Shown here: in pieces, positions 12,928 through 62,719 of the stretch
Position numbering within the stretch: position 1 is the first letter of the stretch
Layout of the letters: each line of letters begins with the position of its first letter
NCBI GenBank assembly: GCA_040754495.1
Contig: JBFMCO010000051.1
Coordinates: forward strand, 1 to 63,069
From: Candidatus Micrarchaeota archaeon
Lineage (GTDB): Archaea; Micrarchaeota; Micrarchaeia; Anstonellales; Bilamarchaeaceae
Direction of reading: 5' to 3'
DNA length: 63,069 nucleotides
The notes under the pieces: generated by a model
What the model saw: only the letters and a program-made list of their open reading frames with translations
Told to the model about the DNA's origin: nothing
Databases searched by the model: none
Position numbers and translations under genes: made by a program

Positions 12928-12955
12928 GGGTTTCCGGTTCCCTGTTTCGGGCATG
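12928..12955. repeat. Degenerate 7-bp tandem array (heptad family)
   Basis: gggtttc cggttcc ctgtttc gggcatg, downstream of the Cys-rich gene. Confidence 0.55.
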
Positions 12956-13039
12956 TTTTGCGCCATTTTGTGTGTCTAAAGCGATAAAAATGCGCTTGAA
13001 CATATGGTTTTTAAATAATAGCCCAACAAAAGGGCTATC

Positions 13040-13765
13040 ATGCGCGCGTTCATCTTCTCTCTAGACGCTTTTGTGGCGTTCACCCTGGCCCTCGTGGCCA
13101 TTTACTCCCTCATCTTCTTCTCAAGCGTCCCATCTGCATACTACTACCTTCTAACACAGGGACACTACCTCTCGAGGGACATCCTCCTCTCGCTCTCGAC
13201 CACGCAATGCACGGACGACTACGGGACATGCAAGGCCGACGGCTCGCTGCTTGACAACATCGTTGCGCAGGACAACGCGGCCCTGAGAAGGGACCTTGTC
13301 CGGAACACGGTCGGCGTCATGGTCCCGCAGCAATTCGGATATACGGTGGAGCTGAGCGAGGACGAAGGGGGGAGTTGGGCCGTCGTATACGATACCGCCG
13401 ACTATACGCCGGCAGAAGACCCTCATGCAAAGAGGAGCAAGAAGCTCACGGTGGCCACGCAGGTCATGACATTCGGATACGGGGGCAAGGTGTTCAAGCT
13501 GCAGACGTCCCCGTACAACTACCTCTCATGCGAAGGGGAAGGGATTATCGGAGGCGGGGCCGGAGGGGGCTGGACCGGCGGCCAGGACACGGCCGATTTC
13601 GGCATAATAACGTGCGGCGAGCTCACGCAGACCATTGACAACGGCGACGGGACGTTCACGAACGTCACCACGAACATCGGCAACACGAACCCGAGCGATA
13701 TCCTCGGAGGGGACCTCATCCCGTCATCGGACGCGCGGCTCGTGAAGCTGACGGTATTCATCTAA
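13040..13765 (+). CDS. Pilin-like protein with class III-like signal peptide
   Basis: MRA|FIFSLDA followed by a hydrophobic helix; first gene of a five-gene run. Confidence 0.7.
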   Translation: MRAFIFSLDAFVAFTLALVAIYSLIFFSSVPSAYYYLLTQGHYLSRDILLSLSTTQCTDDYGTCKADGSLLDNIVAQDNAALRRDLVRNTVGVMVPQQFGYTVELSEDEGGSWAVVYDTADYTPAEDPHAKRSKKLTVATQVMTFGYGGKVFKLQTSPYNYLSCEGEGIIGGGAGGGWTGGQDTADFGIITCGELTQTIDNGDGTFTNVTTNIGNTNPSDILGGDLIPSSDARLVKLTVFI

Positions 13766-13775
13766 GGTGGTTTTG

Positions 13776-15341
13776 ATGGACAAGAAAGGATTCCTATTCA
13801 CCGTGACCGTTTTCCTGATACTCATCTACATCCTTCTTTCCATATCAGTCTGGGTCAAGTCGATAGAGGCCTCCGAGCGCTCGTTCTCGGAGTTCTACAA
13901 GGAGTCCACCGTGGAGCTTACCATAGAGCAGATAACCCCGGCCAAGATGGACAACGTGACATTCATCATAATGAACCGGGCCCTCTCCAGGCTCAACGAG
14001 CACGCAGCGGCCAACTGGGTGATTCCGGGCCCGATGGGCGATGAGGACGCGAACACGCGGGAAGCCCTCTTCTCCCTCCTAATGAACGGCTCTGCGCCGG
14101 CATCCGAGTTCCACGGGGGAGCGGCCATACCTGCCGAGGCCAACTCGTCGCTAACGGCATGGGTCAACAACCTCAACGCCTCGCTGCGCGCAATCGGCGT
14201 CTATGTGAGCGACTTCGGGGTCACCAACTTCAAAGTGGCCCAGAGCGACATCGACAGGGTCAACTATTCGTTCGACATGAAGCTCGGCCTCCGCGACTAC
14301 ACGAACACCTCCGCCGTCTCAAGGACGTACCGGATAGCGAACGAGCTCGACATCACGGGGCTGGTCGACCCTGCGCTCGCAAGGCAGAGCGCTGATTCGG
14401 CCGGCGACAACGGGACAATCTACAGGCAGTTCTTCTTCAACAAGGACTTATACTCCAACTACACGGACATAACCGCTGACACGCTGCCCCAGAGCGTCGA
14501 AGGCGGGCAGGGCTGGCTTTACGGGCCGCTTGCAAAGGCTTCAGGTTCCGGCGACCTCGTGCCGGAAGCGACCGACGTGGCACCGTCCGACAGGAGGCAC
14601 TACATCCTGGTCGGTACCATGGACCAGTTCAACGACCTGACCTCGGGAGTCTACCAGCAGTTCGGCGGCTACATACTCACGAACGCGCCCACGAACCCGA
14701 CCAACTGCAGCAGCAAGGAGAACGAGGACGACACGTTCAACCCCCTGAAGTATTCCGGCGTTTCGTGCAACGTGTCGGTAGGCACGCCATACACCGGCAA
14801 GCCGTTCATGGTGGCGCCGGGCTTCAACCCGGTCACTGCCCCGGAGTGCCCGATGCTTGACGGGAGCAACGCCTCGCGCAGGTGCGTGCTCATGCTGAAC
14901 AGCTACCTCCCGGAGGAGGTGTCCGACGACCCGGAGCGGAAGCTCGTCACGACCGGCAGCGGCCTCTACGGCCTCGAAATCGTCAGGGACTTCGTGATGT
15001 GCGGCTACTACACCCACAACCCGGAGGCGCCCTCGTACCTCCAGAGGCTGCTCAACGACTCATATTCGCGCAACAGCTCGCAGTTCGGCATTGAGACATT
15101 CGTCATAGGCAATTACGCCGCGGACTACGACGTCTATGACATTAACAGCAGGCTGGACCGCGAGCTCTTCATGGGCGGCATCGCCGGCATCAAGGTCAGG
15201 GGCCTTCCCGGGTGCAGGGATTTCGCATCCTGCTCGGACAGCCCGATTACAGGCATCTTCGCGGTAAGCGACGGCACGAAGGACGACTACGGCTTGGGCG
15301 ATGTGGCATGCGACAGCGGCGCTGCGGGGTGCGACTCATGA
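13776..15341 (+). CDS. Large minor-pilin-like protein with class III signal peptide
   Basis: MDKKG|FLFT plus hydrophobic helix; 520-aa extracellular part with several Cys. Confidence 0.72.
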   Translation: MDKKGFLFTVTVFLILIYILLSISVWVKSIEASERSFSEFYKESTVELTIEQITPAKMDNVTFIIMNRALSRLNEHAAANWVIPGPMGDEDANTREALFSLLMNGSAPASEFHGGAAIPAEANSSLTAWVNNLNASLRAIGVYVSDFGVTNFKVAQSDIDRVNYSFDMKLGLRDYTNTSAVSRTYRIANELDITGLVDPALARQSADSAGDNGTIYRQFFFNKDLYSNYTDITADTLPQSVEGGQGWLYGPLAKASGSGDLVPEATDVAPSDRRHYILVGTMDQFNDLTSGVYQQFGGYILTNAPTNPTNCSSKENEDDTFNPLKYSGVSCNVSVGTPYTGKPFMVAPGFNPVTAPECPMLDGSNASRRCVLMLNSYLPEEVSDDPERKLVTTGSGLYGLEIVRDFVMCGYYTHNPEAPSYLQRLLNDSYSRNSSQFGIETFVIGNYAADYDVYDINSRLDRELFMGGIAGIKVRGLPGCRDFASCSDSPITGIFAVSDGTKDDYGLGDVACDSGAAGCDS

Positions 15342-15904
15342 CGACCACTACCACTCACATCAGGGCTGAAGAAGATGGTTTCCGGTTTCGGGTTTCCGGT
15401 TTCCAGAATCCAAAACCCAAAACACAAAACCCAAAACCCGCTGCTGCCGGCCGGATGCCGGCTGCCGGCGGCCGGACGCTGAGGGGGCAGACTTCACTGG
15501 AGCTTCTCGTGACGGTCGGCGTGGTCGTGGCATTCACGCTACCGGTAATCTTCCTCCTCCTCTCCGTCAGCTCAGTGGGCTATGAGGACACGGCGAAGGC
15601 GCAGGCAGACGCTTCGGGAAGGACTCTCGCAGACGCCATGAACGCGGTCTATGCGCAGGGCCCCGGGGCGCAGAGGGAGCTCATGCTCAACGTCCCGCCC
15701 TCCACCGAGGCGGTGTACGCGGCAGACGGGGAGGCGGTCGTCAGGATAAAGACCGCGGGCGGGAGCTTCGATGCGGCATCGCCCACTATCGCGAAGATAG
15801 GGCCGCTCAGCGAGAGCATAGAGGACAAGAGGGGCCTTTTCAAGGTCGTCGTGCGCGCGAACAGCAACGGGGAGGTTGAGATTGATGACCCGGCCACCCC
15901 CTGA
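15338..15904 (+). CDS. Pilin-like protein (RG|QTSLE) with a repeat-expanded leader
   Basis: ATG overlaps the upstream stop (ATGA). Class III motif LRG|QTSLELLVTVGVVV. The leader contains the heptad array. Confidence 0.72.
   Translation: MTTTTTHIRAEEDGFRFRVSGFQNPKPKTQNPKPAAAGRMPAAGGRTLRGQTSLELLVTVGVVVAFTLPVIFLLLSVSSVGYEDTAKAQADASGRTLADAMNAVYAQGPGAQRELMLNVPPSTEAVYAADGEAVVRIKTAGGSFDAASPTIAKIGPLSESIEDKRGLFKVVVRANSNGEVEIDDPATP
15377..15439. repeat. Heptad array, 9 units, in frame inside the prepilin leader
   Basis: ggtttcc ggtttcg ggtttcc ggtttcc agaatcc aaaaccc aaaacac aaaaccc aaaaccc (63 nt, head-to-head), followed by GGATGCC-type units. Confidence 0.9.
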
Positions 15905-16367: not shown

Positions 16368-16375
16368 GTGGGAAC

Positions 16376-19939: not shown

Positions 19940-20015
19940 GCGGTCCTCCTGCGCCTTTGCGCCAGCTGGGGCTTCAGAATGAGAGTAGACTGCTGTGCAC
20001 TGTTGACCGCCCGGT

Positions 20016-20064
20016 CAGTTTCCCGCATCCAGTTCCCCGTTGCCGGGTGCTGGAAACCGGAAAC
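20016..20064. repeat. Heptad array, 7 units, intergenic
   Basis: cagtttc ccgcatc cagttcc ccgttgc cgggtgc tggaaac cggaaac. Confidence 0.75.
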
Positions 20065-20148
20065 TCCCCGGGCTTCCGTCCCCTTTCAGGGGCGGAATTC
20101 CTTCACGGCTCGGTTGGCTCAGGTGGCCATCCATGCACAGCGTCAGCG

Positions 20149-20580
20149 TTAAGAGATTGCAGCGCGCTCCTCTATGAGGTCGACCACGACGGGGAATATC
20201 TTCATGATGTCCCCCTCGCTCAGTATCCCTATGAGTTCGTTATCGTCATTGACGACCGGGAGCCTCTTTATCTTGTTCTCCCTCATCGCCTTTGCTGCAT
20301 CCTCGATTGTGGTATCCGGCCTCACCACCCTAAGGGGCTTTGACATGACCTCTTCGGAAGCCACCTTGTACGGGTCGCTTCCCTTTGCAAGTATCTTGTA
20401 TACTATGTCGCGTTCCGTGATTATGCCCTTGGCGTGCTTGCCTTCCTTGTCTTCGACGACTATGACCGAGCCGATGCCATTCTTCTTCATCAGCCTGGCC
20501 ACGTCAAGGATGGTTTTGCCGAATGGAACCACTACGACCTTCTTGGTCATAATGTCTCCCACTCTCAAGTCTGATCCCAT
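20149..20580 (-). CDS. CBS-domain protein
   Basis: Tandem CBS pair (VGDIMT...GIITERDI...VMSKP...GILSEGDI). Confidence 0.9.
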   Translation of the reverse strand: MGSDLRVGDIMTKKVVVVPFGKTILDVARLMKKNGIGSVIVVEDKEGKHAKGIITERDIVYKILAKGSDPYKVASEEVMSKPLRVVRPDTTIEDAAKAMRENKIKRLPVVNDDNELIGILSEGDIMKIFPVVVDLIEERAAIS

Positions 20581-21692: not shown

Positions 21693-24428
21693 ATGGAACC
21701 TAGTGCTATCGAAGAGAAATGGTCCAGGCGGTGGGCCGAAGCCCGCGCCTTCGAGGCCGACCCGGACCCCTCGCGCGAAAAGCGCTACATCACCGCCGCA
21801 TTCCCCTACCCGAATTCCCCACAGCACATAGGCCACGGCAGGACATATACCACCGCCGACATCTACTCGAGATACCTGCGTCTGAAAGGCCATAACGTCC
21901 TGTTCCCGATGGCGTTCCACGTCACCGGCACGCCCATCATCGCGATGGCCAAGCGCATCGCGGCAAGGGAAAAGGACGTCCTGGACGTATTCGAGAACAT
22001 ATACGCCATCCCGCCCGCAAAGGCCGAATCGCTCAGCGAGCCCCGGGCGCTCGTGGCATATTTCTCCGACGAGATAGAGAAGGGCATGAAGGAAATCGGC
22101 TACTCCATAGACTGGCGGCGCAAGTTCTACTCATATGACGAGAGGTTCAACCGGTTCATTCAGTGGCAGTTCCGCAAGCTCAAGGAGCTCGGCTACCTGA
22201 TAAAAGGCGATTACCCGATCGCCTGGTGCCCGGCGGACAAGCAGGCAGTGAGTGCCCATGACACGAAAGGGGACGTGGACCCGGAGCTGGAAGAGGTAAC
22301 CGCTATAAAGTTTGGTGTCGCGGAGGGGACCTATCTCGTCGTTACGACATACCGGCCGGAGACCGTCTACGGCGTGACGAACATATGGATTAATCCGGCC
22401 ATCCGCTACGTGCGCGCAAGATACGGGAAGGAGACGCTCATCATGTCCGCAGAGGCGGCAGACCTCCTCGACCTGCAGTGGAAAGGCCTCGAGGTCCTCG
22501 GCGACGTTTCTCCTGAAGAACTGCTGAAGATGAGCGCGGAAAACCCGGTTTCCGGGGCTGCGATAGCGAAGGTGCCGGTCTATAGCGCCAGCTTCGTAAA
22601 GGCGGACGTCGGGACCGGCGTGGTCATGAGCGTGCCTGCGCACGCGCCGCTGGATTATCTGGCCCTCCGGGACATCGGCAGGGCGGATGGGGAAATGCCC
22701 CAGGTGCTTTCTGTCGGGGGGCAGGCGGGCAATCCTGCCCGCGAGGTCGTGGAGCGCATGGGCGTGAAGGACCAGAACGACCCGAAGGCGCAGGAAGCCA
22801 CGAAGGAGCTTTATCTCAGGGAGAACTCCGGCGGGACGATGCTTCTCGGGAAGTGGAAGGGCGGCGGCGTGAAAGCCGCCCGCGAGGCGCTTATCAGGGA
22901 CATGTGCGGGCAGGGGCAGGCGTACGCGGTGCGCATCCTTGCCAACAGCCCGGTCTTCTGCAGGTGCGGGGCCAAGGTGAAGGTCAACCTCCTCCAGGAC
23001 CAGTGGTTCATAGACTATGGCATCCCGGAATGGAAGGAGAAGGCCAAGGAATGCCTGGCCGGGATGAACATCATCCCGGATGACACGCGCTCCGAATACC
23101 AGTACACCATAGACTGGCTCCAGAGGAGGCCGTGCGCGAGGGCTACGGGGCTCGGGACGAAATTCCCGTTCGACGAGGCCAAGATGATAGAGGCGCTCTC
23201 GGACTCCACGGTCTATATGGCCTTCTATACGATTTCCCACCTCCTGAAGGACATCCCGGCATCCGAGATGGACGAGGCGTTCTTCGATTACGTGTTTTTG
23301 GGACGGGGAACCGGAAACCGGAAACTGGAAGCCATCCGCAACAGCTTCCTCTACTGGTATCCTGTGGATTCCCGCCACTCGGCCGGCGACCTCATACGCA
23401 ACCACCTCACGCTCTACATCTTCAACCATGTCGGCATCATGGAAAAGAGGCACTGGCCGCGCCAGATAGTGACGAACGGCTTCGTCCTCATGGATGGGAG
23501 CAAGATGAGCAAGAGCATGGGCAACATCCTGCCGCTCCGCAAGGCCGTCAAGGAATACGGTGCGGACGTGATACGGTTCGCGGTCGTGTGCGGGGCTGAC
23601 CTGACGAGCGACACGGATTTCAACAAGAGCGTGGCCGACGGCGTCCGCTCCAGGATGGCGCTCATACACAGGCTCGTCCAGGACTCGAAACACAAAACCG
23701 CTAAACCACACGGCCGCATCGAGCGGTGGCTCCTCTCCAGGCTGAACCGGAAAATCGAGAAGGCGGACCGGATGTATTCCAATCTTGCGATACGCGACCT
23801 TGCGCTGGACATATTCTATGACGCAATCAGCGACCTGCAATGGTACCTGAAGCGCTCCGAAGAGCCGAACCTGAAGGATTTCTTCGGGAAGTGGGTAGTG
23901 CTCATAGCGCCGTTCATGCCGCATTTCGCAGAGGAATACTGGGAGATGCTCGGGGGGAAAGGATTCGTCTCCTTCGCCCCCTTCCCGGTTGCCGACCATA
24001 CGAAGGTGGACGACTCGGTGGAGCGCGGCGAGGAGCTCATCAGGAAGGTGCACGGGGACATAGAGAAAATCTCCGGCCTCATCGGTAAGAAGCCCGCAAA
24101 AGTTACGATATACGCGGCCGCGGACTGGAAAAGGGAGCTTTATGCGCTTGCGAAGGCGAACCCTTCTTTCGAGGGCCTCATGAAGGCGGCTAACGAGCGG
24201 AAAATGGACATGAAAGCGGTGCAGTCAATCGCGAAGCAGATAATGAAGAACGTCCATGCACTGCAATCCCCGGTGTCGCAGAAGGAAGAGCTTGAGGCCC
24301 TGCTGGATGCAAGGGCGTTCCTCGCAAGGGAATACTCGTGCGAGGCAGATGTGCTTCCGGAAGAGAATGCCGGGCATGAGAAGGCGAAATCCGCCCTGCC
24401 GGGCAAGCCGGCGATAGTGCTGGAATGA
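21693..24428 (+). CDS. leuS: Leucyl-tRNA synthetase (archaeal type)
   Basis: PYPNSPQHIGH, KMSKS, CP1 editing domain TTYRPET...GTGVVMSVPAHAP.DY. Confidence 0.96.
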   Translation: MEPSAIEEKWSRRWAEARAFEADPDPSREKRYITAAFPYPNSPQHIGHGRTYTTADIYSRYLRLKGHNVLFPMAFHVTGTPIIAMAKRIAAREKDVLDVFENIYAIPPAKAESLSEPRALVAYFSDEIEKGMKEIGYSIDWRRKFYSYDERFNRFIQWQFRKLKELGYLIKGDYPIAWCPADKQAVSAHDTKGDVDPELEEVTAIKFGVAEGTYLVVTTYRPETVYGVTNIWINPAIRYVRARYGKETLIMSAEAADLLDLQWKGLEVLGDVSPEELLKMSAENPVSGAAIAKVPVYSASFVKADVGTGVVMSVPAHAPLDYLALRDIGRADGEMPQVLSVGGQAGNPAREVVERMGVKDQNDPKAQEATKELYLRENSGGTMLLGKWKGGGVKAAREALIRDMCGQGQAYAVRILANSPVFCRCGAKVKVNLLQDQWFIDYGIPEWKEKAKECLAGMNIIPDDTRSEYQYTIDWLQRRPCARATGLGTKFPFDEAKMIEALSDSTVYMAFYTISHLLKDIPASEMDEAFFDYVFLGRGTGNRKLEAIRNSFLYWYPVDSRHSAGDLIRNHLTLYIFNHVGIMEKRHWPRQIVTNGFVLMDGSKMSKSMGNILPLRKAVKEYGADVIRFAVVCGADLTSDTDFNKSVADGVRSRMALIHRLVQDSKHKTAKPHGRIERWLLSRLNRKIEKADRMYSNLAIRDLALDIFYDAISDLQWYLKRSEEPNLKDFFGKWVVLIAPFMPHFAEEYWEMLGGKGFVSFAPFPVADHTKVDDSVERGEELIRKVHGDIEKISGLIGKKPAKVTIYAAADWKRELYALAKANPSFEGLMKAANERKMDMKAVQSIAKQIMKNVHALQSPVSQKEELEALLDARAFLAREYSCEADVLPEENAGHEKAKSALPGKPAIVLE
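23305..23332. repeat. Heptad array, 4 units, in frame in leuS
   Basis: ggggaac cggaaac cggaaac tggaagc, encoding the GTGNRKLE loop. Confidence 0.6.
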
Positions 24429-28421: not shown

Positions 28422-28484
28422 GTATTTCCGCATCCGGCCGCCGGCAGCCAGCAGCCGGTTTAGCGTTTTGCGTTTCGGGCTGGC
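28422..28484. repeat. Heptad array, 9 units, intergenic
   Basis: gtatttc cgcatcc ggccgcc ggcagcc agcagcc ggtttag cgttttg cgtttcg ggctggc. Confidence 0.65.
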
Positions 28485-28485: not shown

Positions 28486-28722
28486 CTACCGCTTCTTCCT
28501 GAACTTCATGTAGCTCTTCAGCGCCCTTGGGTCCAGCTTCTTCAGCACGTTTCCGACCGTCCTCCGGACGTCCGAGGTGCTCTTTATCAGGCCCTTGTGC
28601 AGCCTGTCCTTCACCGCCACGACCGACGCCTTCGCGGCCTTGGGCACTGCGTGCGCCCTCTTGAGGGATGCCCTGAGCTTCTTCTCGCTGAACGCCTGCG
28701 CCTTCTTCAGGATTTTCTTCAT
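28486..28722 (-). CDS. Small, highly basic hypothetical protein
   Basis: 78 aa, Lys/Arg-rich, divergent from apgM across an AT-rich gap. Confidence 0.65.
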   Translation of the reverse strand: MKKILKKAQAFSEKKLRASLKRAHAVPKAAKASVVAVKDRLHKGLIKSTSDVRRTVGNVLKKLDPRALKSYMKFRKKR

Positions 28723-39842: not shown

Positions 39843-39868
39843 GTTTTGGGTTCCGGGTTTTGGGTTCT
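39841..39868. repeat. Heptad array, 4 units, between convergent stop codons
   Basis: gagtttt gggttcc gggtttt gggttct. Confidence 0.75.
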
Positions 39869-39872
39869 GCGG

Positions 39873-41852: not shown

Positions 41853-44066
41853 CTACCTGACAAGCCCTTCCTTCACGTTCTTCATCCTGAGTTCCTCGCT
41901 CGCCGTCGCGAGCGGCTTCCCTTCGGAAACGACCGCGAATCCCTTCACCTCGATTCTGATTTTCTGGAACTCGCCAATCGTGAGCGTCTTCTTCGGCGAG
42001 CTTTTTGCCCCCTTCTGAATCACCTTCTCGCCGACTTCGCTCCTGTCGCAGAATATGACCTCGACGGCGCCTTTCTCCGGCGGCGCCTTCCCGTCGTGCA
42101 TGGGCGCCTGCTCGTGCCCCTCGGCTGCGAGCAGCATCCCCTGGGACTCCACGCCGCGCAGCTTCGCGTGCGCGAGGTTCTTCACGATGACCGCCTTTCT
42201 TCCGACCAGCTCCTCCTCCAGATAGTGCCCGACGAGGCCTGAGACTATCTGCCTGACCTCGCCCCCGCCGAGGCGCACATTTTCCAAAAACAGCTTCTCC
42301 GCGTCCGGGTGCCTCTCGACGCTCAGAATCTCGCCGACTTCAAGGTCGAGGTCCGAAAACGCGGGCCCGGCCTCGGCCTTCTTCCCTGCGAATTTGGCCC
42401 GGAGAGCCTCGATTTCCTTCGGCTCGATTTTCCTGAAAAGCGGCTTCGGGGAGCCGATGGCATGCCCGGAAGGTATCGGCTTTCCGAGCGCATCCCAGCC
42501 AGACTGCGGGAGCGCCATCTGCGCGAAAATCTCCCTGCTGGTCTGGGGCAGGAACGGCCCTATCAGGATTGCGATGTCCTTCACCTCTCTTGCGAGCACG
42601 GCAATCACGGCGCCCGCGCGTTTCCTGTTTTCGGTTTCGAGTTCAGCGTCCGGCCCTTTCCGGACAAGCTCCCAGGGCTTGTTGTCCTGGAAGAACTTGT
42701 TCGCGCTCTTGGAGTAAGACATGATGCGGTGGAGCGCGTCCTTTATCCGTACCCGCTCGAGGTCGGCGGTTATCTCCATGGCCTGCTTCTCCTGCGCGGC
42801 GATGAACTGTTTTCCGTTATCATCCGGCTCGCCTGATGGAATCTTCCCGTCAAAATTGTTCTTCACGAAGACAAGGGTCCTGTTAACCAGGTTGCCCAGG
42901 TTCGCGAGAAGCTCGTTGTTGTTCTTGTCAGAGAAATCCTCCCACACGAAATTCGTGTCAGCCTGCTCGGGCCGGTTCGAGAGGAGGTAATACCTCCAGA
43001 CGTCGGCTGGAATGCCGGAGTTCATCGCGTCGTCCCCGAAGACGCCGACCTGCCTGGATTTCGAGAACTTGCCGCCCTCGTAGTTCAGGAACTCGGTCGT
43101 GCTGATGTGGTGAAGGAGAGTCCACGGTTCCCTCGTCCCGATCAGGGTGGAGGGGAAAATCACCGTGTGGAAAGGCACGTTGTCCTTGCCCATGAACTGG
43201 TAGAGCCTCACGCCCGCATCGTCCATCCACCATTCCTTCCAGGAGTCGGTTAGGTTGGCCGTGATGGATATGTATCCGATGGGCGCGTCGAACCAGACAT
43301 AAAACACCTTGTTCTCGTAGCCCGGAAGCGGCACCGGGACTCCCCACTTGAGGTCGCGCGTTATCGCCCTTTTCTTCAGCCCCTCCCTAAGCCACGAGCG
43401 GGCTATCTGGACCGAGTTCTCGGACCAGAACCCCTCCTTCGACTTCCTATCTATCCATTCCGCGAGCTCTTTTTCGGTCCCGGGCAGGTTGATGAAGAGG
43501 TGCTTCGTCCTCCTGAGGATTGGCGCGGTCTTGCTGACCCTGCTCAGCGGGTTCTTCAGCTCGCCGTGCTGGAGGAGCCTGCCGCACTTGTCGCACTGGT
43601 CAGAGCGCGCGCCCTCAGAGGCGCAGTAGGGGCATGTGCCCTCTATATACCTGTCGGCGAGGAACATGCCCGCCTTCTCGTCGTAGAACTGCTCGACCTC
43701 GTCCTCGACTATGAAGCCGTTCTGGTGCAGCCTGGAAAAAATGTCCTGCGTTATCTGCGTGTGCTTCTCGGTGGAAGTCCGCCCGAAGATGTCGAACCTT
43801 ATGCCGAACCATTCGTATACGTCGCGGTGGAGCTTGTGGTATTTGTCGCAGATTTCCCTCGGGCTGACCCCCTCCTCGAGCGCCTTTATCTCGGTCGCAG
43901 TGCCGTATTCGTCGGTCCCGCAGATGTAGAGGCAGTCGTAGCCCCGGAGGCGGCAATAGCGCGAGAACACGTCCGCCGAGAGCACGCACCCGATTATGTT
44001 GCCAAGGTGCGGGACATTGTTGACATAAGGTAAGGCTGAGGTAATCAGGATCTTTTTTGACTCCAT
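41853..44066 (-). CDS. metG: Methionyl-tRNA synthetase with C-terminal tRNA-binding OB domain
   Basis: SALPYVNNVPHLGN, Zn knuckle CPYC..CDKC, KFSKS, C-terminal HPDAEKL...LRGVESQGMLL. Confidence 0.96.
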   Translation of the reverse strand: MESKKILITSALPYVNNVPHLGNIIGCVLSADVFSRYCRLRGYDCLYICGTDEYGTATEIKALEEGVSPREICDKYHKLHRDVYEWFGIRFDIFGRTSTEKHTQITQDIFSRLHQNGFIVEDEVEQFYDEKAGMFLADRYIEGTCPYCASEGARSDQCDKCGRLLQHGELKNPLSRVSKTAPILRRTKHLFINLPGTEKELAEWIDRKSKEGFWSENSVQIARSWLREGLKKRAITRDLKWGVPVPLPGYENKVFYVWFDAPIGYISITANLTDSWKEWWMDDAGVRLYQFMGKDNVPFHTVIFPSTLIGTREPWTLLHHISTTEFLNYEGGKFSKSRQVGVFGDDAMNSGIPADVWRYYLLSNRPEQADTNFVWEDFSDKNNNELLANLGNLVNRTLVFVKNNFDGKIPSGEPDDNGKQFIAAQEKQAMEITADLERVRIKDALHRIMSYSKSANKFFQDNKPWELVRKGPDAELETENRKRAGAVIAVLAREVKDIAILIGPFLPQTSREIFAQMALPQSGWDALGKPIPSGHAIGSPKPLFRKIEPKEIEALRAKFAGKKAEAGPAFSDLDLEVGEILSVERHPDAEKLFLENVRLGGGEVRQIVSGLVGHYLEEELVGRKAVIVKNLAHAKLRGVESQGMLLAAEGHEQAPMHDGKAPPEKGAVEVIFCDRSEVGEKVIQKGAKSSPKKTLTIGEFQKIRIEVKGFAVVSEGKPLATASEELRMKNVKEGLVR
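42619..42646. repeat. Heptad array, about 4 units, in frame in metG
   Basis: Degenerate units cgtttc ctgtttt cggtttc gagttca, encoding ELETENRKR in the anticodon-binding domain. Confidence 0.5.
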
Positions 44067-51622: not shown

Positions 51623-52819
51623 ATGCAGGAATACTTATCGAAAGGGCCCGGGACCGGGGGCGTCCTCAAGGCCGCGCCGCAGGATTTTTTGGTGGAAGAA
51701 ATCGCTCCTGATGGAGCGATTTACGAGCTGGGCAGGCAGTTTTCCGGGCCAGAAACTGACGGCCCGTACACCCACTTCATCCTCCAGAAAAAGAACTGGA
51801 CCAGCGCCTCTGCAATCAGCGAAATCGCCTTGCGCCTGCGCGTCAGCCAGAGGCAGTTCAACATAGCCGGCATCAAGGACAAGGTCGCGATAACGACGCA
51901 GCTCGCATCCGTCCGGGGGGACCAGCGGGCCGCGCTCGGCTCCCTCCCGATAAAAGACATATCGGTCAATGGGACGTGGAAGGCCGGGGACCGCGTTCAC
52001 ATGGGCCAGCTCCTCGGAAACAGGTTCACGATTACCGTGCGCGATGCCTGCGAAGGGGCGGCGGGGCGCGTCGAGGCCGTCTCCGGCGAGCTCGACAAGA
52101 AAATGCCCAACTATTTCGGGGAGCAGAGGTTCGGCTCCAGCAGGAGGAACACGCACCTTGTCGGCCGGAAGCTCCTGCAGGGGGGGCTGGAGGACGCGGC
52201 GATAATGTTCTTGTGCGACATATCGAACGAGGCCGATGCGGAGGCCGTCGCGGCGCGTAAAGAGCTTGCGGATACCCGGGATTTTTCCCGCGCGCTCCAG
52301 TACTACCCTGCGCGCCTTCGCCTCGAGCGCTCGCTCATCGCATACCTCGCAAAGAACCCGGGAAAATACGCCGAAGCGCTCCGCAGGCTCCCGCGCAACA
52401 TCCTCCTGCTTTTCATCCACGCCTTCCAGTCGCACCTTTTCAACGACCTCCTCTCCCGGCGCCTTTCGGAAGGGGCGCTTGAGCTAGAGGAGGGGGAGTA
52501 TTTCTGCGGCGAGAGGCTCGGCTTCCCGGACGCATCCCGGGCCGAGGCCGAGGGCTGGATATGCGGCAAGATAATCGGGTACGGGACGCCGCTGAATGCC
52601 CGCGAGAAAGACGCGCTCGCGGAGGCGGGGATTGAAAAGGAGGCGTTCAGGATGAAGGCGCTGCCCGAGCTTGCGTCCAAAGGCACCTACCGCACGCTTC
52701 TCGCTCCCCTTAAAGGGTTTTCGGTTTCCAGTTCTGAATCTGGCATGCGGTTCCGGTTCGAGCTGCCATCAGGCTCCTACGCAACGGTCGCGATGCGGGA
52801 ATTCACGAAAAACGGGTGA
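51623..52819 (+). CDS. truD: tRNA pseudouridine(13) synthase TruD
   Basis: DFLVEEI, AGIKDKVAITTQ, LLGNRFTI, NYFGEQRFG, FELPSGSYAT. Confidence 0.95.
   Translation: MQEYLSKGPGTGGVLKAAPQDFLVEEIAPDGAIYELGRQFSGPETDGPYTHFILQKKNWTSASAISEIALRLRVSQRQFNIAGIKDKVAITTQLASVRGDQRAALGSLPIKDISVNGTWKAGDRVHMGQLLGNRFTITVRDACEGAAGRVEAVSGELDKKMPNYFGEQRFGSSRRNTHLVGRKLLQGGLEDAAIMFLCDISNEADAEAVAARKELADTRDFSRALQYYPARLRLERSLIAYLAKNPGKYAEALRRLPRNILLLFIHAFQSHLFNDLLSRRLSEGALELEEGEYFCGERLGFPDASRAEAEGWICGKIIGYGTPLNAREKDALAEAGIEKEAFRMKALPELASKGTYRTLLAPLKGFSVSSSESGMRFRFELPSGSYATVAMREFTKNG
52714..52760. repeat. Degenerate heptad array in frame near the truD 3' end
   Basis: gggtttt cggtttc cagttct gaatctg gcatgc ggttcc ggttcg. 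Confidence 0.45.
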
Positions 52820-52844: not shown

Positions 52845-54026
52845 TTGAGCCTGTCGAAAGGCGTATTCTACAACCCCCAGATGCGCTTCTGCCGGAGCAT
52901 GTCGTCGCTCGCGGTCGGGGCCATAGGCGAAAAGCTCGAAGTCGTGGACGCTTTCTGCGCGAGCGGCATCCGCGGCATCCGCTACGCGAAGGAGAACAAA
53001 AACGTCAGGAAGCTCACGTCCCTCGACATAGAGAAATCCGCCATCGCCCTTGCGAAAAAGAACGCGAAGGCGAACAGGGTGAAGCACGAGGCGGTCGTCG
53101 GCAACGTCTCGCGGATGGCCTTCGGGCTGGATGCGGACTTCCTCGAAATTGACCCGTTCGGGACGCCGAGCCCTTATCTTGTCGACGCCTTCCGCTTCTT
53201 CAACACGAAGAAGGAGGCGTATCTCTCGGTCACCGCCACTGACGTCGCGGTCCTCTGCGGGGGCAAGACCGCCCCATGCATGAAGAATTACCACTCGAAG
53301 CCCATGAACAATGAGTTCACCCACGAGACCGGCCTGCGCATCATGCTCAAGAAAATCGCGGAGACCGCGGCGGAATTCAACATGGGCATCGGGCCGCTCG
53401 TCTCCTTCTCGGACAGGCACTACCTCAAGGCTGTTTTGCATGTGAAGAGGGGCGCGGACCTTGCGTACGAATCCATGAAAATGCTCGGGTATGTGAGCTA
53501 TTGCGCAAGGTGCGGATGGCGGGGAAGCGGGAAATTCCCAGAAAAATGCCAGAACTGCCGAAACCCGGAACCCAAAACAGGAAACATCATCCGGGATGCC
53601 GGAAGCCCGCTGCCGGATGCTGAAAGCCGGGTGCCGGAAACCATGCGTCCTTCGGCCGCAAGCTCTCAGGTTCCTGCGGAACCCAAGACCGACTATGCCG
53701 GCCCTCTATGGCTCGGCGGGCTGCACGAGCCGGATTTCGTGCGGCGCATGGCCGGCCTGAATGCGGCCCGCGGATATTCCGACAAGGAGGAGCTTGCCGG
53801 GGCGCTAGCCCTGATGGCCGGGGAAACAGGCATGCCTCCGTATTATTACAACGTGCACGCCCTGTGCAAGCTCGCCCGCTCGGCATCGGTGCCGGCGATG
53901 GGAACAGTGCTGGATTCGCTGAGGGCGGCGGGCCACAGGGCGGTGAAGACGCATTTCTCGCCCATCTGCATCAAGACCGATGCGCCATATGGTGCTGTGA
54001 AGGAGGCGGTAGGATGGAGAAGCTGA
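52845..54026 (+). CDS. trm1: tRNA (guanine26-N2)-dimethyltransferase Trm1 with a repeat-derived insertion
   Basis: VFYNPQM, DAFCASGIRGIRY, EIDPFGTP, SVTATD, ETGLRI, AGPLW, KTDAP. Start uncertain (TTG 52845 or CTG 52824). Confidence 0.92.
   Translation: MSLSKGVFYNPQMRFCRSMSSLAVGAIGEKLEVVDAFCASGIRGIRYAKENKNVRKLTSLDIEKSAIALAKKNAKANRVKHEAVVGNVSRMAFGLDADFLEIDPFGTPSPYLVDAFRFFNTKKEAYLSVTATDVAVLCGGKTAPCMKNYHSKPMNNEFTHETGLRIMLKKIAETAAEFNMGIGPLVSFSDRHYLKAVLHVKRGADLAYESMKMLGYVSYCARCGWRGSGKFPEKCQNCRNPEPKTGNIIRDAGSPLPDAESRVPETMRPSAASSQVPAEPKTDYAGPLWLGGLHEPDFVRRMAGLNAARGYSDKEELAGALALMAGETGMPPYYYNVHALCKLARSASVPAMGTVLDSLRAAGHRAVKTHFSPICIKTDAPYGAVKEAVGWRS
53558..53641. repeat. Heptad array, 12 units (84 nt, 28 codons), in frame in trm1
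   Basis: ccgaaac ccggaac ccaaaac aggaaac atcatcc gggatgc cggaagc ccgctgc cggatgc tgaaagc cgggtgc cggaaac. Confidence 0.85.
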
Positions 54027-55448: not shown

Positions 55449-55505
55449 CCCCGTCCGCCGCATGCCAGTACTTCAGGACGGTCTCAGACAACTGCCATGT
55501 ATAGG

Positions 55506-55625
55506 GGGTTTCCAGTGCAGGGTTGCCGGTTTCCCATACCGTGTGCAGCCAAAACCGGAAACCATGCGGCTGCTACCGCAAGTTTCCCGGTTCCTCCCGG
55601 AACCGAGAACCGGAAACGGAAAACC
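55506..55625. repeat. Heptad array cluster upstream of ftsZ
   Basis: gggtttc...gggttgc cggtttc...ccaaaac cggaaac...cggaacc gagaac cggaaac ggaaaac. Confidence 0.7.
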
Positions 55626-55749
55626 ACCGGAGAGATGCCTGAATGTCAGAAGAAGTTCGGAACTACTGCCTGTGGCATCTCCCCAGCTATTATATACCTT
55701 TTGATACAATCTCATAGCGTCAGATTCTACTTGACCCCCAGGTGATGAT

Positions 55750-57524: not shown

Positions 57525-57561
57525 CCCCTCTGCCTGCTCAGCCCCTCGGGGTTTTCCCAGA

Positions 57562-57630
57562 AGGTTTCCGGTTCCGGGTTTCCAGTTCCGATGCCGAAAA
57601 CAGGAAACCGGAGACCCGCCATCCGCAGAC
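57562..57630. repeat. Heptad array, about 10 units, head-to-head, between convergent genes
   Basis: aggtttc cggttcc gggtttc cagttcc gatgccg aaaacag gaaaccg gagaccc gccatcc. Confidence 0.85.
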
Positions 57631-58801: not shown

Positions 58802-58977
58802 GCGACCGTAGTCTAGTGGTAGGATCTGAGCTTCCCACGCGCCTTTTGAAAAAAGGCGCGCCCAAAACTGTCCGTTTGCAAACCCTCGAAGGGTTTGCCG
58901 GAAATAAGTTTTAGGGCGCCTTTTACTAAAAGGCGCAGAAAAAGCTCATGACCCGGGTTCGAGCCCCGGCGGTCGCA
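58802..58977 (+). tRNA. tRNA-Gly(CCC) with a 105-nt intron at 37/38 (58838-58942)
   Basis: Acceptor GCGACCG/CGGTCGC with A73; anticodon stem TGAGC/GCTCA; loop TTCCCA|A; T-arm CCGGG TTCGAGC CCCGG; BHB-like junction. Confidence 0.9.
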
Positions 58978-59015
58978 GTAGCTTTTTTTTCTTCACCATA
59001 ACTGCTAATCTTATG

Positions 59016-59075
59016 TGGTTCCCGGTCTCGGGTTTCCGGTTTCGTACGGAACCCGGAACTGGAAACAGGGAACGC
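59016..59075. repeat. Heptad array, head-to-head, downstream of tRNA-Gly
   Basis: tggttcc cggtctc gggtttc cggtttc gtacgga acccgga actggaa acaggga. Confidence 0.85.
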
Positions 59076-59081
59076 AGCTTT

Positions 59082-59096
59082 CCCGGCGGTCGCAGT
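59082..59096 (+). repeat. 15-bp direct repeat of the tRNA-Gly 3' end
   Basis: CCCGGCGGTCGCAGT occurs at 58965-58979 and 59082-59096; each copy is followed by a T-tract. Confidence 0.75.
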
Positions 59097-59140
59097 GCCT
59101 CTTTTTTGCATCGCCATCACTGTCGTTCCCCAGTGGTCCC

Positions 59141-59190
59141 CAGTTTCCGGTTTCCAGTACGGGATGCCGGAAACAGGATGCCGGAAACGC
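59141..59190. repeat. Heptad array, 7 units
   Basis: cagtttc cggtttc cagtacg ggatgcc ggaaaca ggatgcc ggaaacg. Confidence 0.8.
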
Positions 59191-59448
59191 AACTTTCCCG
59201 GTGCTTGCATTGAAACTTTTCTAAGTCTCTGCTACGGCCAAAGTTTCCAATTGGAGCGTCGTGTGCTCCAATGGGCCACAGAAACCGCCGCGCGGTTTCT
59301 GCCGCTCATCAAACATCCTGTCCGGTTTCGCTGCGGGACGGAAATTTTCGTAATATAAGCGTCTGTTTTCACAAATCACCATCGAATCTTTCAGAAACTT
59401 TTATATTGATTGCGACCTCATCTCCTGCAAGAACGAGGTGATTTCAGA

Positions 59449-59566: not shown

Positions 59567-60562
59567 TTATAAAAACAGCGTGTCCAGCACCGAATAGCTG
59601 GCGAATCCCATCAGCATGCTCACCGGGACTGTGAGGGCCCATCCGAAGAGTATCTCGCGCATGACCCCCATGTTTATCGCGTGGCCTCCTTTTGCAGCGC
59701 TCACCCCCATTATCGAGCCGGAAACTGTCTGGCTCGTGCTCAGCGGGAAGCCGAGCATGGAGGCTCCGCCTACCACGAGGGCGGCGCTGGTCTCCGCCGC
59801 GAACCCCTGCCACGGCCTGATTCTCGCCAGCCGGAATCCCATAGTCCGGACTATCCTCCACCCCCCGAAGAGAGTGCCGAGGGAAAGCGCCAGGAACGTT
59901 ACCGCTTTGAGCCAGAGCGGAATGGCATCGCCCCCGCTCTGCAGGCCATAGAATATGAAAATAGCGGCCAGGACCCCGGTGGATTTCTGCCCGTCATTGG
60001 CCCCGTGCGCTATCGAGAAGAAGAGCGATGAGAAGACCTGCAGCCTGCTGAAACCGGCGCTCAGCGCCGCGGATGCCCTCCCCCTCACCGCCCTGAGGAG
60101 GATGGCGACGAAGAGAAGCACCGCAAGGAAAGCGACGATGGGGGCCAGCGCCATCGGGACCAGTATCTTGAATATCAGGCTGTCGAACTTCACCACCTCC
60201 AGGCCCGCGGCAGCTATGCCCGCCCCTGCCAGCGTCCCTATGAGCACCTGCGTCTCGGAGATGGGTATCCCCTTGCGGTAGGTGATATACTCCCAGACCA
60301 TGCCGCCAAGGATAGCCGCTATGACCAGGGAAGCCGAAACCGCTGAAGGGTCCACGACGCCCTTCCCGATTGTCGCCGCCACGGCCTCGCCGAGGAACAT
60401 GCCGATAAGGTTTCCGGAGGCCGCGAGCACGACGGCCTGGATGGGCGACAATACCCTCGTAGCTACGACCGTGGTGATGGCATTGGAAGCATCGCTGAAC
60501 CCGCTCCAGAACGTCCACCAGAGAACGAACCCGACCGCCGCGAAGAAAACGAGTTCGAGCAT
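59567..60562 (-). CDS. pit: PiT-family inorganic phosphate transporter
   Basis: GFSDASNAITTVVATRVL, AHGANDGQK, PLSTSQ..SGSIMG. Confidence 0.92.
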   Translation of the reverse strand: MLELVFFAAVGFVLWWTFWSGFSDASNAITTVVATRVLSPIQAVVLAASGNLIGMFLGEAVAATIGKGVVDPSAVSASLVIAAILGGMVWEYITYRKGIPISETQVLIGTLAGAGIAAAGLEVVKFDSLIFKILVPMALAPIVAFLAVLLFVAILLRAVRGRASAALSAGFSRLQVFSSLFFSIAHGANDGQKSTGVLAAIFIFYGLQSGGDAIPLWLKAVTFLALSLGTLFGGWRIVRTMGFRLARIRPWQGFAAETSAALVVGGASMLGFPLSTSQTVSGSIMGVSAAKGGHAINMGVMREILFGWALTVPVSMLMGFASYSVLDTLFL

Positions 60563-60571
60563 CGTCCCACA

Positions 60572-61198
60572 TCAGGAATACTTCAGTCGTATGTCGAGTA
60601 TGACGTTGCTCACGTCCTCGCACTTGTCCGTGACTATCTCGAGCGTCTCGTATATCTCCTTGTACTTCATTATCTGGATGGCGTCCTTCCCCCGAAACAG
60701 TTTCGATATCTCGCCGTGGAGGAGATTGTCCGCGTCGTTCTCGAGCTTGTGTATCTGCACGCAGCTCTTTTCTATCTCCTCCTTCTTCATGCCCTTTATC
60801 CCTTCCATGGCCTTGTTGATGTGCTCGACCTGGTACCTGATTATCCGGGCGAACTCCTTCATGGCGGGCGTAGGCGCCCTGATGTCGTAGAGCTCGAGGC
60901 GGTTGGCCGCTCCGTAAATGTAGTCAAGGACGTCGTCGTAGCGCGAGGCGAGGCGCGATATGTCCTCGTGGTCGAGGGGGGCTATCAGGGTCTCGTTGAG
61001 CTTGTAGTATATCTCATGGACTATGTTGTCGCCTTCGTGCTCGAGCCTCTTTATCTCATCGCGCTTCTCCCGAATCGAGCTGAAGTCCTCGGTGAGCTCG
61101 AGGAGCGCTTTGGAGGCCCCGTCGACCATCCTGGACTGCTTTGAGAGCAGCTCGAAGAAAGCGTAATCCTGCGGGATTATCCATTCCCGTATTCCCAT
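60572..61198 (-). CDS. DUF47 PhoU-like Pit accessory protein
   Basis: IKRLEHEGD, LIAPLDHEDI, IHKLENDAD, LEIVTDKCEDV; adjacent to pit. Confidence 0.92.
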   Translation of the reverse strand: MGIREWIIPQDYAFFELLSKQSRMVDGASKALLELTEDFSSIREKRDEIKRLEHEGDNIVHEIYYKLNETLIAPLDHEDISRLASRYDDVLDYIYGAANRLELYDIRAPTPAMKEFARIIRYQVEHINKAMEGIKGMKKEEIEKSCVQIHKLENDADNLLHGEISKLFRGKDAIQIMKYKEIYETLEIVTDKCEDVSNVILDIRLKYS

Positions 61199-61202
61199 AA
61201 CA

Positions 61203-62435
61203 TCACTGGTAGATGGGGAACCTGGCGCACAGCTCCTCCACCTCGTTCCTGACGCGCAGCTTCAGCTCCGAGTCGCTCGGCTTCTCTATCACCCTCACAA
61301 TCATGCGGGCGACCTCCTTCATCTCGCCCTCTTTCATCCCCCTCGTGGTGAGCGCCGCGCTGCCGACCCTGAGGCCGCTCGTCACGAAAGGCGGGCGGGG
61401 GTCGTTCGGTATGGAATTCCTGTTCGTTATGACGCCGGCCTCCTCGAGGGCCATCTGGGCGTCCTTGCCAGTTATGCCCTTCGGGGTGAGGTCCACGAGA
61501 ACAAGGTGCGTGTCGGTCCCTCCCGCAACCAGGCGCAGGCCGTTTTCCGAAAGTGTGCCTGCAAGGGCCTTCGCGTTCTTCACTACCTGCGCCGCATAAT
61601 CCTTGAATCCGGGCTGGAGGGCCTCCTGGAAGCATACCGCCTTGCCGGCAATGCAGTGCTCGAGCGGGCCGCCCTGCATGCCCGGGAAGACGGCCTTGTC
61701 TATCTTCTGGGCGTTCGCCTCGGGGCACATTATCATCGCGCCCCTCGGGCCGCGGAGCGTCTTGTGCGTCGTCGTGGTTATGATGTCGGCATACTGGGCC
61801 GGGGACGGATACACGCCGCCTGCGACAAGCCCGGCAAAATGGCTTATGTCCGCCATCATGACGGCACCCACTTCGTCGCATATTCCCCGAAACGCCTTGA
61901 AGTCTATGGTGAGGGGGTAGGCGGTGTAGCCGCATATGACGAGCTTCGGCTTCTCCTCCAGCGCCCTCTTCCTTATCGCGTCGTAATCGAGCGCCTCGGT
62001 CTGCCTGTCCACCGTGTAGGCGCACGGCTTGAACCATTTGCCCGAGAAATTCACGGGCGAGCCGTGCGTGAGGTGGCCGCCGTTCGCGAGGTCGAGCCCC
62101 ATGAACTTGTCCCCGACGTTGAGGAAGGCGAAGAACGCGGCGATGTTGGCCGAAGCGCCGGCATGGGGCTGGACGTTCGCGTGGCCGACGCCGAACAGCT
62201 TCTTCGCGCGCTCGATGGCAAGCAGCTCCACCTCGTCCACATACCGGTTGCCGGCATAATACCTCTTTTTGGGATACCCCTCCGCGTACTTGTTCGTCAG
62301 GACCGAGCCGGTCGCCTCCATGACGGCCCTGCTCGCGTAATTCTCGGAGGCTATGAGCCTGAGCGTCTTCTTCTGGTATTCCAGCTCCTTCTCAATAAGT
62401 CCGAAAACTGCCGAGTCGGTTTGCTTCAGAGACAT
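61203..62435 (-). CDS. glyA: Serine hydroxymethyltransferase (bacterial-like)
   Basis: [47 protein letters not shown]. Confidence 0.96.
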
Positions 62436-62518
62436 ATTGACCTCCCAACCTTGATTGCCGCTAATCATTTTAAATGAATCGAGCCATCTCAATAACGCTT
62501 TTGGTTTAGAATAAGTTT

Positions 62519-62683
62519 GCCGACGTCGCATAACCTGGTAGTGCGCACACAAGTGTCTCCAGTTCCGGGTTTCCGGTTTTGGGATTTTGGCGCAAGCCTG
62601 GAATCCGCCTTTAAGCTAAGGCGATTCTAATGCCAGCGAGCGTGTTCCCCTGTGGATCGGGAGTTCAAATCTCCCCGTCGGCG
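62519..62683 (+). tRNA. tRNA-Ser(GGA) with two introns: 29/30 (62549-62595, 47 nt) and 37/38 (62604-62638, 35 nt)
   Basis: Removing both introns gives GCCGACG/CGTCGGC with G73, anticodon stem CACGC/GCGTG, loop CTGGAAA, a long variable arm and the T-loop TTCAAAT. BHB central helices are GCGC/GCGC and CTGG/CCAG. Confidence 0.88.
62559..62586. repeat. Heptad array inside tRNA-Ser intron 1
   Basis: ccagttc cgggttt ccggttt tgggatt. Confidence 0.75.
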
Positions 62684-62691
62684 ATTTTCCT

Positions 62692-62719
62692 TTGTTTCCA
62701 GTATCCGGTCCTGGGTTTC
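62692..62719. repeat. Heptad array in the loop of a 13-bp inverted repeat after tRNA-Ser
   Basis: ttgtttc cagtatc cggtcct gggtttc, flanked by CGGCGATTTTCCT and AGGAAAATCGCCG. Confidence 0.6.

Follow-up and report, generated by a model that had tools for sequence, protein, structure and literature searches.

The DNA analysed here (the window) is a stretch of 63,069 nucleotides that constitutes contig C51 (JBFMCO010000051.1) of a 1.63-Mb assembly from a Candidatus Micrarchaeota archaeon (GCA_040754495.1; 72 contigs, 59.5% G+C, 80% complete). Its housekeeping genes encode leucyl-tRNA synthetase (LeuRS), methionyl-tRNA synthetase (MetRS), TruD, Trm1 and a PHO4/PhoU pair, and both these genes and the spacers between them carry arrays of tandem 7-bp units (heptads), which an initial annotation had listed at 16 sites as a dispersed family colonizing intergenic DNA, protein genes and a tRNA intron. 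The closest MetRS homologues all come from metagenome-assembled genomes (MAGs) of Candidatus Micrarchaeota (DPANN), with protein identities of no more than 79%; Micrarchaeota also account for the majority of matches, and the weaker ones (about 50% identity or less) derive from bacterial MAGs. Five congeners have contigs that are syntenic to the window, with 68–79% nucleotide identity in genes.

Detection and enrichment of heptad arrays

A scan for self-similarity (21-nt windows with at least 16 self-matches at lag 7, merged to runs) revealed 94 runs genome-wide at lag 7, compared to 1–9 runs at lags 4, 5, 8, 10, 11 and 13, and the lag-7 runs visibly draw on a few common units. These units were grouped into T-type (GGTTTCC, GGTTTCG and GGTTTTG), A-type (the complements of the T-type units), P (GGATGCC) and Q (GGCATCC). 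A detector that requires at least three in-register units with no more than one mismatch per unit identified 250 arrays in the genome, 112 of which have at least four units, whereas order-1, order-3 and order-5 Markov genomes and a codon-preserving shuffle contained 3–21 arrays, with 0–1 of four units or more. The arrays are therefore real, and when merged they represent 209 loci, 147 of which have unique flanks. The two unit types do interleave as had been claimed, with Q alongside T and P alongside A (in-register neighbour counts: T-T 246, A-A 227, T-Q 58 plus 41, A-P 43 plus 29). The family thus combines tandem 7-bp units far above chance with a single unit family that is common to many unrelated loci. 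The 24–48-nt repeats and unique spacers of similar length that define CRISPR arrays are not seen, since the units are 7 nt long and contiguous.

Within the window the detector finds 16 arrays, far above every null. Eleven of the 16 sites listed in the initial annotation pass this strict test (12928, 15377, 23305, 28422, 39841, 39955, 53558, 55506, 57562, 59016 and 59141), and four more (20016, 42619, 52714 and 62559) are degenerate but visibly heptadic, with heptads at matching places in relatives; the site at 62692 is marginal. The detector also adds weak arrays at 5820 and 30338.

Polarity, unit order and independence of the arms

Wherever a T-type and an A-type run lie no more than 40 nt apart in this genome, the T-type run comes first (33 to 0). 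A T-then-A arrangement reads identically on both strands, and the opposite order is therefore a truly different structure, which is never seen in this genome. Of 99 family genomes, 28 together yield 93 matches to the T-then-A pattern; the reverse pattern yields none, although a laxer version of the reverse pattern gives a single match. The G/T-rich strands of paired runs thus point 3′ toward each other and form an inverted repeat capable of hairpin formation; T-then-A loci fold as hairpins with z-scores of −2 to −4.8 relative to shuffles, while a single arm shows no such fold. The 7-nt register had been described as often kept through the switch of orientation, but this did not hold up in general, as only 3 of the 33 hairpins have a gap divisible by 7.

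The units are also ordered within a run. On the G/T-rich strand, the mean relative position rises from 0.34 (GGCATCC-type units) through 0.39 (GGTTTCC) and 0.64 (GGTTTCN) to 0.70 (GGTTTTN), with a Kruskal p of 1e-13 over 110 runs, such that GGCATCC-type and GGTTTCC units occupy the outer (5′) part and are followed by GGTTTCG and then by GGTTTTG at the inner end. Because the order ends in GGTTTTG, it is this end that adjoins the loop in hairpins. The constant part of the unit is a GTTTC core, with first and last positions that vary freely. Many junctions read CCGG, but an origin in CCGG restriction–modification was dropped because of this free variation around the constant core.

The two arms of a hairpin are independent draws. 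Arm duplex energies are −0.95 kcal/nt with the own partner and −1.03 kcal/nt with a cross-partner, and the own partner ranks uniformly among them. As arms match foreign arms no less well than their own, the idea that one arm is a fold-back copy of the other was rejected. Arms range from 3 to 8 units. Strings of at least 21 nt that are common to different loci number 6, compared to 7–15 in a unit-shuffled null; arrays at different loci thus have no multi-unit string in common beyond chance, and no near-identical pairs of arrays were found.

Genomic placement

Gene-position statistics are based on rough codon-usage gene calls that cover 86% of the genome. By these calls, 93 of the 209 loci lie inside genes, 12 across gene ends and about 100 between genes, which means that about half of the loci fall in the 14% of the genome left non-coding. 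Array density is highest in convergent spacers (about 0.69 per kb), followed by tandem (0.55) and divergent spacers (0.28), and is 0.07 per kb in coding DNA. A run starts within 80 nt past the stop codon in 74 of 1223 genes, and in 43 of these it starts within 20 nt. Inside genes, past the first 150 nt, the sense strand carries 55 A-type but only 7 T-type runs (p = 2e-10); A-type runs encode hydrophilic peptides rich in E/T/G/N/R/K/P, whereas T-type runs would encode F/V-rich ones. This sense bias, together with the preference for positions directly after stop codons and in leaders, loops and introns, supports the earlier suggestion that arrays survive only where they are tolerated.

Sites in the window and their counterparts in relatives

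At sites shared with relatives, the arrays differ in unit content and in their arms. About 20 nt past a stop codon, the detector finds a T-type run on the plus strand (12929–12965); the same site holds a longer T-then-A hairpin in G010, of which the window has one arm, and none in G084 and G081. A degenerate T-then-A hairpin in a spacer (20016–20064, fold z −3.95) has counterparts built from different units at the matching site of G010 and of G084; in G081 the site is cleanly empty. A further plus-strand T-type run (39842–39869) begins at the stop codon of a 538-amino-acid gene; it forms no hairpin (fold z 0.0) and corresponds to a 33-nt insertion relative to G010. Between two convergent genes lies a T-then-A hairpin (57563–57616, fold z −2.6) for which the window has both arms, G010 has the T run alone and G084 has nothing.

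The flanks of the hairpin at 20016 (spacer 19950–20150) are conserved in four species and can pair over approximately 8–10 nt. This suggests, from conservation and pairing potential, an unannotated structured RNA that may host the heptad hairpin; a search of the conserved spacer against Rfam gave no match.

Protein-coding genes also carry arrays. The array at 15377–15481 consists of four T-type and four A-type units followed by GGATGCC-type units (hairpin z −2.1) and lies within an in-frame insertion of about 140 nt that separates the ATG of a prepilin-like leader from its cleavage site, with a clean empty site in G010 and G081. Four plus-strand A-type units found by the detector in frame in LeuRS (23306–23333) replace a variable loop without a gain in length, as seen by comparison with five relatives. 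Detector-positive GGCATCC-type and T-type units on the plus strand (39954–39988) fall in a 160-amino-acid gene on the minus strand and are thus A-type on the sense strand; this site is heptad-like in G010, decayed in G084 and absent in G016, and its length is unchanged. Visible but degenerate heptads (42619–42650, plus strand) occupy the minus-strand MetRS gene, again A-type on the sense strand, where they coincide with an insertion of 9–10 residues that, among 17 Micrarchaeota, the window shares with its two closest relatives alone; here G016 is shorter by 27 nt. In Trm1, at least 12 A-type plus GGATGCC-type units detected in frame on the plus strand (53559–53700) are placed after the zinc-finger cysteines, where G010 has about four units and neither G084 nor G016 has any.

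TruD has T-type units on its sense strand, near the C-terminus (52714–52775, plus strand, visible heptads), that are common to the window and G010. The corresponding segment in G084 and G016 is shorter and not heptadic, but its T runs are similarly spaced (GATTTTA AATTTCT in G084). The resulting product fits the family consensus and not the local proto-unit.

A GGCATCC-type run followed by T-type units (28429–28477, plus strand, detector) marks the edge of an insertion of about 300 nt that, together with the array, is missing in G010, G084 and G081. Within this insertion, a 78-amino-acid gene on the minus strand (28486–28722) shows weak similarity to ATP-cone proteins.

The array at 55506 is an exception to the claim that no terminal repeats are present, which is correct for the family overall. 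Its heptad runs (55507–55534 and 55598–55639) lie inside a 203-bp element (55466–55668) that resembles a miniature inverted-repeat transposable element (MITE), with inverted ends of the CAGTAGTTCCGAAC type. Two further copies of this element in the genome are each accompanied by 6-bp target duplications, the element is missing at the orthologous site in G010 and G084, and about five loci in all belong to this MITE-like family. The heptad family overall lacks the terminal inverted repeats, target duplications and uniform length expected of MITEs.

Empty orthologous sites were thus found in relatives for the prepilin leader, MetRS, Trm1 and the flanks of stop codons. Alignment of these sites indicates that arrays are gained over time at new positions, persist and turn over in place, and that they are not identical static sequence.

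tRNA genes and their introns

The tRNA genes of the window were read from alignments because neither ARAGORN in its default mode nor Rfam called any tRNA there (Rfam found no other RNA family in the window either). The tRNAs of this genome are intron-rich, and the intron mode of ARAGORN finds only six genome-wide, all of which lack an intron; standard tRNA finders thus miss intron-rich tRNA genes here. The window contains a tRNA-Ser(GGA) with two introns (62519–62683) and a tRNA-Gly with a long intron (58802–58977). Alignment with relatives upheld the predicted intron array, as the first intron of tRNA-Ser(GGA) is filled with heptads that have a T-type interior (62550–62596, plus strand). Heptads occupy the same position in G010 and G084, other content is found in heptad-free G016, and the intron is missing in G003. 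Several arrays elsewhere in the genome also occupy tRNA introns. The marginal heptad-like stretch that follows (62692–62730, plus strand; two units pass the detector) sits within a hairpin pairing with the 3′ end of tRNA-Ser.

Downstream of tRNA-Gly, the 3′ end of the gene (about 15–17 nt) recurs twice within 58960–59210, each time behind a heptad hairpin, and the last copy is degenerate. The first of these T-then-A hairpins lies between the tRNA-Gly 3′ end and its copy (59017–59074, fold z −3.2), and the second has alternating GGATGCC/GGAAAC units (59141–59189, fold z −4.8). Both hairpins are located beside a segment of about 2.2 kb, lacking at this locus in G010 and G084, which encodes a PHO4 phosphate transporter and a PhoU-like protein (59567–61198). 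The tRNA-Gly 3′ end is likewise duplicated in G084, around a different, non-heptad palindrome, and on contig C23 another tRNA-Gly is followed by a similar leader plus hairpin.

Distribution across the family

Of the 98 other genomes of the family, 66, belonging to many genera, contain the pattern of three GTTTY units, and the number of matches in a genome ranges from 0 to 86. In two further families of the order, the pattern turns up in 2 genomes out of 42 and 1 out of 19; a single genome of a third family accounts for 36 matches. Abundance differs sharply even between near relatives: G016 and G010 are equally close to the window, but G016 has zero matches while G010 has 42. The highest heptad abundance is seen in G112, G135 and G133, whereas G004, G005 and G020 are heptad-free like G016. 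A unit conserved across genera whose abundance switches on or off from one near relative to the next points to a cause at the level of the genome and speaks against local slippage or selection acting site by site. The initial annotation had argued that local slippage alone is insufficient, and this is borne out by one unit family at more than 200 loci with mostly unique flanks, its spread over many genera and the empty sites in relatives.

The family therefore offers a natural experiment in which one unit family is distributed over about a hundred related small genomes that have from zero to dozens of arrays. The absolute orientation rule, the unit order and the empty sites constrain any mechanism, and a gene-level search for the cause is feasible. 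The arrays also have consequences for annotation: signal peptides become longer, tRNA synthetases and Trm1 gain loops, and tRNA introns are filled.

In a scan of viral contigs, 86 contigs contained the heptad motif. The densest sampled contig, IMGVR_UViG_2820209022_000004 (L108), has about ten types of heptamer array in 11 kb, including AGTTTCC, and probably comes from an unrelated, heptamer-rich organism.

Proposed origin of the arrays

We propose that the arrays are lineage-specific neutral or selfish DNA that a strand-polar, non-local process deposits one unit at a time and that persists only where it is tolerated, an interpretation to which we assign a probability of about 0.45. With the G/T-rich strands of both arms running 3′ into the centre, the most economical way to generate the arrays would be synthesis from two facing 3′ ends that are then joined. 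Runs would be laid down one unit at a time by DNA synthesis from facing 3′ ends at a break, nick or recombination junction, after which the two extensions would be joined. The synthesis may take the form of stuttering, or of copying from a short template, by a replication or repair activity that is present in only some Micrarchaeota lineages, and the runs could later be reshaped in place by slippage. Selection would remove runs from all but harmless places, such as those after stop codons, convergent spacers, tRNA introns, mobile DNA, leaders and flexible loops; in protein loops, almost only the orientation encoding hydrophilic E/T/G/N/R/K/P peptides would survive.

The strict convergent polarity is compatible with addition at facing 3′ ends. 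Such addition would also account for single arms, as one-sided events, and for the independence of paired arms, as well as for length-neutral replacement, by resection and then fill-in, and for the arrays at junctions of inserted DNA (the edge of the insertion at 28429 and the copies of the tRNA-Gly 3′ end). The data establish the enrichment, the common units, the polarity, the unit order, the independence of the arms, gains at sites that relatives have empty and filtering by tolerance; we infer both the 3′-end synthesis and a trans-acting enzyme, and with them the mechanism as a whole. A more specific but doubtful version is that some Micrarchaeota possess an end-‘writer’, in the absence of a canonical reverse transcriptase, that, as a repair or replication activity, extends facing 3′ ends at breaks or recombination junctions with GGTTTCC-type heptads drifting toward GGTTTTG, so that a hairpin scar marks each repair; the bacterial heptamers may be an analogue. 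If this were true, phylogenetic profiling could exploit the patchy distribution in the 99 genomes to identify the gene.

Several observations weigh against deposition from 3′ ends. No enzyme was found that could act as the writer: searches of the 80%-complete assembly gave no match to reverse transcriptase (RVT_1, PF00078), to Y1 transposase (PF01797) or to Ku. A telomerase-like reverse transcriptase and Ku-type end joining were rejected on these results, and the telomerase-like or RNA-mediated writer envisaged in the initial annotation is left with no candidate, because no reverse transcriptase was found in this assembly. The genomes compared are only 68–79% identical in the nucleotides of their genes, such that slippage could have scrambled copies over the time since they diverged, and the haplotype and arm tests therefore leave room for old copy-and-paste. 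A fixed unit order and polarity are also expected of a discrete element with a master sequence, and some arrays do travel inside the MITE-like element. Finally, the conservation of the unit across genera and the positions after genes could reflect a binding protein or an RNA role.

Alternative explanations

A discrete, non-autonomous mobile module is the best-surviving alternative, although on balance we consider it unlikely. The T-then-A hairpin would then be copied by a protein encoded elsewhere, in the manner of a MITE, an intervening sequence (IVS) or a doublet of repetitive extragenic palindromic (REP) units, and the mover could be a four-helix-bundle protein of the 23S_rRNA_IVP type, an integrase or the product of a gene missing from the bin. 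The accompanying idea that single runs are decayed halves and that the copies were scrambled by slippage is equally doubtful. A master element explains the fixed polarity and internal unit order just as well as does stepwise synthesis from 3′ ends, and a module would produce insertions at sites that are empty in relatives, as well as heptad hairpins between duplicated tRNA 3′ ends. The arrays that ride the MITE-like element, with its inverted ends and target duplications, also fit this model, but neither conserved ends nor target duplications were seen at the hairpin loci inspected by eye. The variation in arm length from 3 to 8 units, the lack of near-identical pairs and the unique flanks of most loci are likewise difficult to reconcile with copying of a defined element, and the LeuRS array replaces sequence where a mobile module would have inserted.

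REP units are imperfect palindromes of 20–40 nt that are present in many near-identical copies and associated with a Y1 transposase (REP-associated tyrosine transposase, RAYT). They form hairpin-type inverted doublets (REPINs), accompanied by single remnants, that are extragenic after genes and differ sharply in abundance between relatives. The heptad family is similar in that hairpin doublets and singles occur after genes and abundance varies sharply among relatives, and its patchiness among congeners is reminiscent of REPIN–RAYT systems. Unlike in REPINs, however, tandem heptads make up the arms, near-identical copies are lacking and the 80%-complete assembly gave no match to a Y1 transposase; the last two results led us to reject a REPIN/RAYT reading.

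A four-helix-bundle gene (PF05635) was assessed as a candidate mover, as the initial annotation had raised its co-occurrence with the repeat. It is present in 31 of the 99 family genomes, and the median heptad count is 7 in genomes with the gene versus 1 in those without (p = 7e-4, uncorrected for phylogeny). This weak association stands, but the gene is neither necessary nor sufficient, as it is missing from 6 of the 14 heptad-rich genomes and present in 4 heptad-free ones. Arrays of 7-nt units lie within 400 nt of a PF05635 gene at 6 of 18 loci and are clear on both sides in three (G034, G173 and G003), which is a lead toward a module mobilized by this protein, whereas most PF05635 genes are unflanked. 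The heptad-rich genomes G112 and G135 have intact copies of the gene. The copy in the present genome is frameshifted, not enclosed by arrays, and located at a site that is conserved among congeners; a frameshift here would fit fossil arrays with no recent copies. As a cause of the arrays, PF05635 was rejected in view of the weak uncorrected link, the exceptions in both directions, the frameshift and the conserved locus.

It is less probable still that the arrays are functional signals, either hairpins that end or stabilize transcripts or tandem sites for a lineage-specific DNA- or RNA-binding protein. Such a role would explain why runs begin 0–20 nt past the stop in 43 genes, why arrays are enriched in convergent and depleted in divergent spacers, why hairpins fold better than shuffles and why the unit is conserved across genera; several sites also keep a hairpin in three species despite sequence change. 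The arrays nevertheless appear dispensable, as the close relative G016 has none and its spacer matching window positions 57525–57630 (on contig G016:C233) has ordinary T6–T7 tracts after the orthologous gene, although the downstream neighbour gene differs. Single runs after stop codons comprise 36 T-type and 21 A-type runs, with no clear orientation, and T5+ tracts follow 20% of genes with arrays versus 19% of those without; a terminator reading was rejected on the basis of these two statistics. In a hairpin-plus-U terminator, the U-rich arm would also be expected last, contrary to the polarity seen here. The two arms show no covariation, and many arrays are found in coding DNA, in introns and in a MITE. 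Dispensability in close relatives, the missing orientation with respect to genes and arms that do not vary together thus disfavour a functional role.

The notion that each array arose in situ by replication slippage of a local seed, through a 7-nt slip bias of the polymerase plus compositional convergence, is highly improbable: unit number does differ between species at common sites, the ancestral TruD sequence already had T runs 7 nt apart and heptamer-favouring slippage has been proposed for bacteria (cited in PMC4692102), but this cannot easily account for an identical unit at more than 200 loci and across genera, strict polarity and ordered units, empty sites in relatives that lack a seed, congeners that range from 0 to 86 matches, or a TruD product that matches the family consensus and not the local proto-unit.

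Relationship to known repeat families

Dispersed heptamers have been known in bacteria since the short tandemly repeated repetitive (STRR) sequences of cyanobacteria, and the mechanism was never found. STRR heptamers of heterocystous cyanobacteria (Calothrix, Anabaena) are tandem 7-bp units with about a hundred or more copies, mostly intergenic, and are also cited in PMC4692102. The arrays described here share the tandem 7-bp units, the many dispersed copies and the mostly intergenic location, but have different unit sequences; we know of no description of STRR heptamers in strictly convergent pairs, as in-frame insertions or inside introns. Our literature search found no paper on such heptamer repeats in archaea.

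Genome-wide heptamers were reported by Rehm et al. in 2015, with the units GGGAATC in Xanthomonas and GGGGAYT in Nostoc (PMC4692102). These arrays are 89–93% intergenic, lie on average 28 nt from the upstream open reading frame (ORF) and are commoner between convergent than divergent genes; 70–75 inverted-repeat pairs are described only as convergent, and at shared loci both the length and the sequence of the arrays vary between two species (PMC4692102). The present family is similar as a dispersed 7-bp family that is mostly extragenic near the upstream ORF and forms convergent inverted pairs, as the Xanthomonas heptamers do. It differs in its archaeal host and GTTTC-core unit, in the larger share of arrays in genes and tRNA introns, and in a G-quadruplex potential that is confined to the GGTTTTG part of the run. 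Relative to these reports, the ordering of unit types along a run is new, as is the test of polarity across the family.

The heptamer TAACTGA was described by MacGregor in 2015 in marine Beggiatoaceae and in some Cyanobacteria and Bacteroidetes, and this single heptamer makes up 169 sets of short direct repeats; its phylogenetic distribution is patchy, with no evident route of spreading (PMC4679880). A patchy phylogenetic distribution of heptamer repeats is common to both systems, but TAACTGA repeats sit just before start codons and hardly ever pair in inverted orientation, with one indirect repeat, whereas the arrays studied here follow stop codons and form convergent pairs.

Among elements that are not heptameric, the palindromic elements of Rickettsia are selfish, conserved sequences of 100–150 bp that occur in frame in housekeeping genes and in RNA genes. 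Heptad arrays are likewise tolerated in housekeeping and RNA genes, but they are runs of a 7-bp unit and vary in length. The intervening sequences in the 23S rRNA of Coxiella carry an ORF for an S23p four-helix-bundle protein (PMC4990558). As in that system, a PF05635 gene is present in the lineage, statistically linked with heptads and bracketed by arrays in G034, G173 and G003; unlike in Coxiella, the gene of the present genome is outside rRNA, frameshifted and at a conserved locus, and such genes mostly lack flanking arrays.

The frameshifted PF05635 gene (C14:46649–47010, L023) is preceded by a structured-looking sequence of about 250 nt that is conserved in five congeners and matches no Rfam family. 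Direct arrays of other 7-nt units bracket PF05635 genes in two further genomes, with ATACCAA in G173:C36 (L026) and GGACYCW in G034:C7 (L021).

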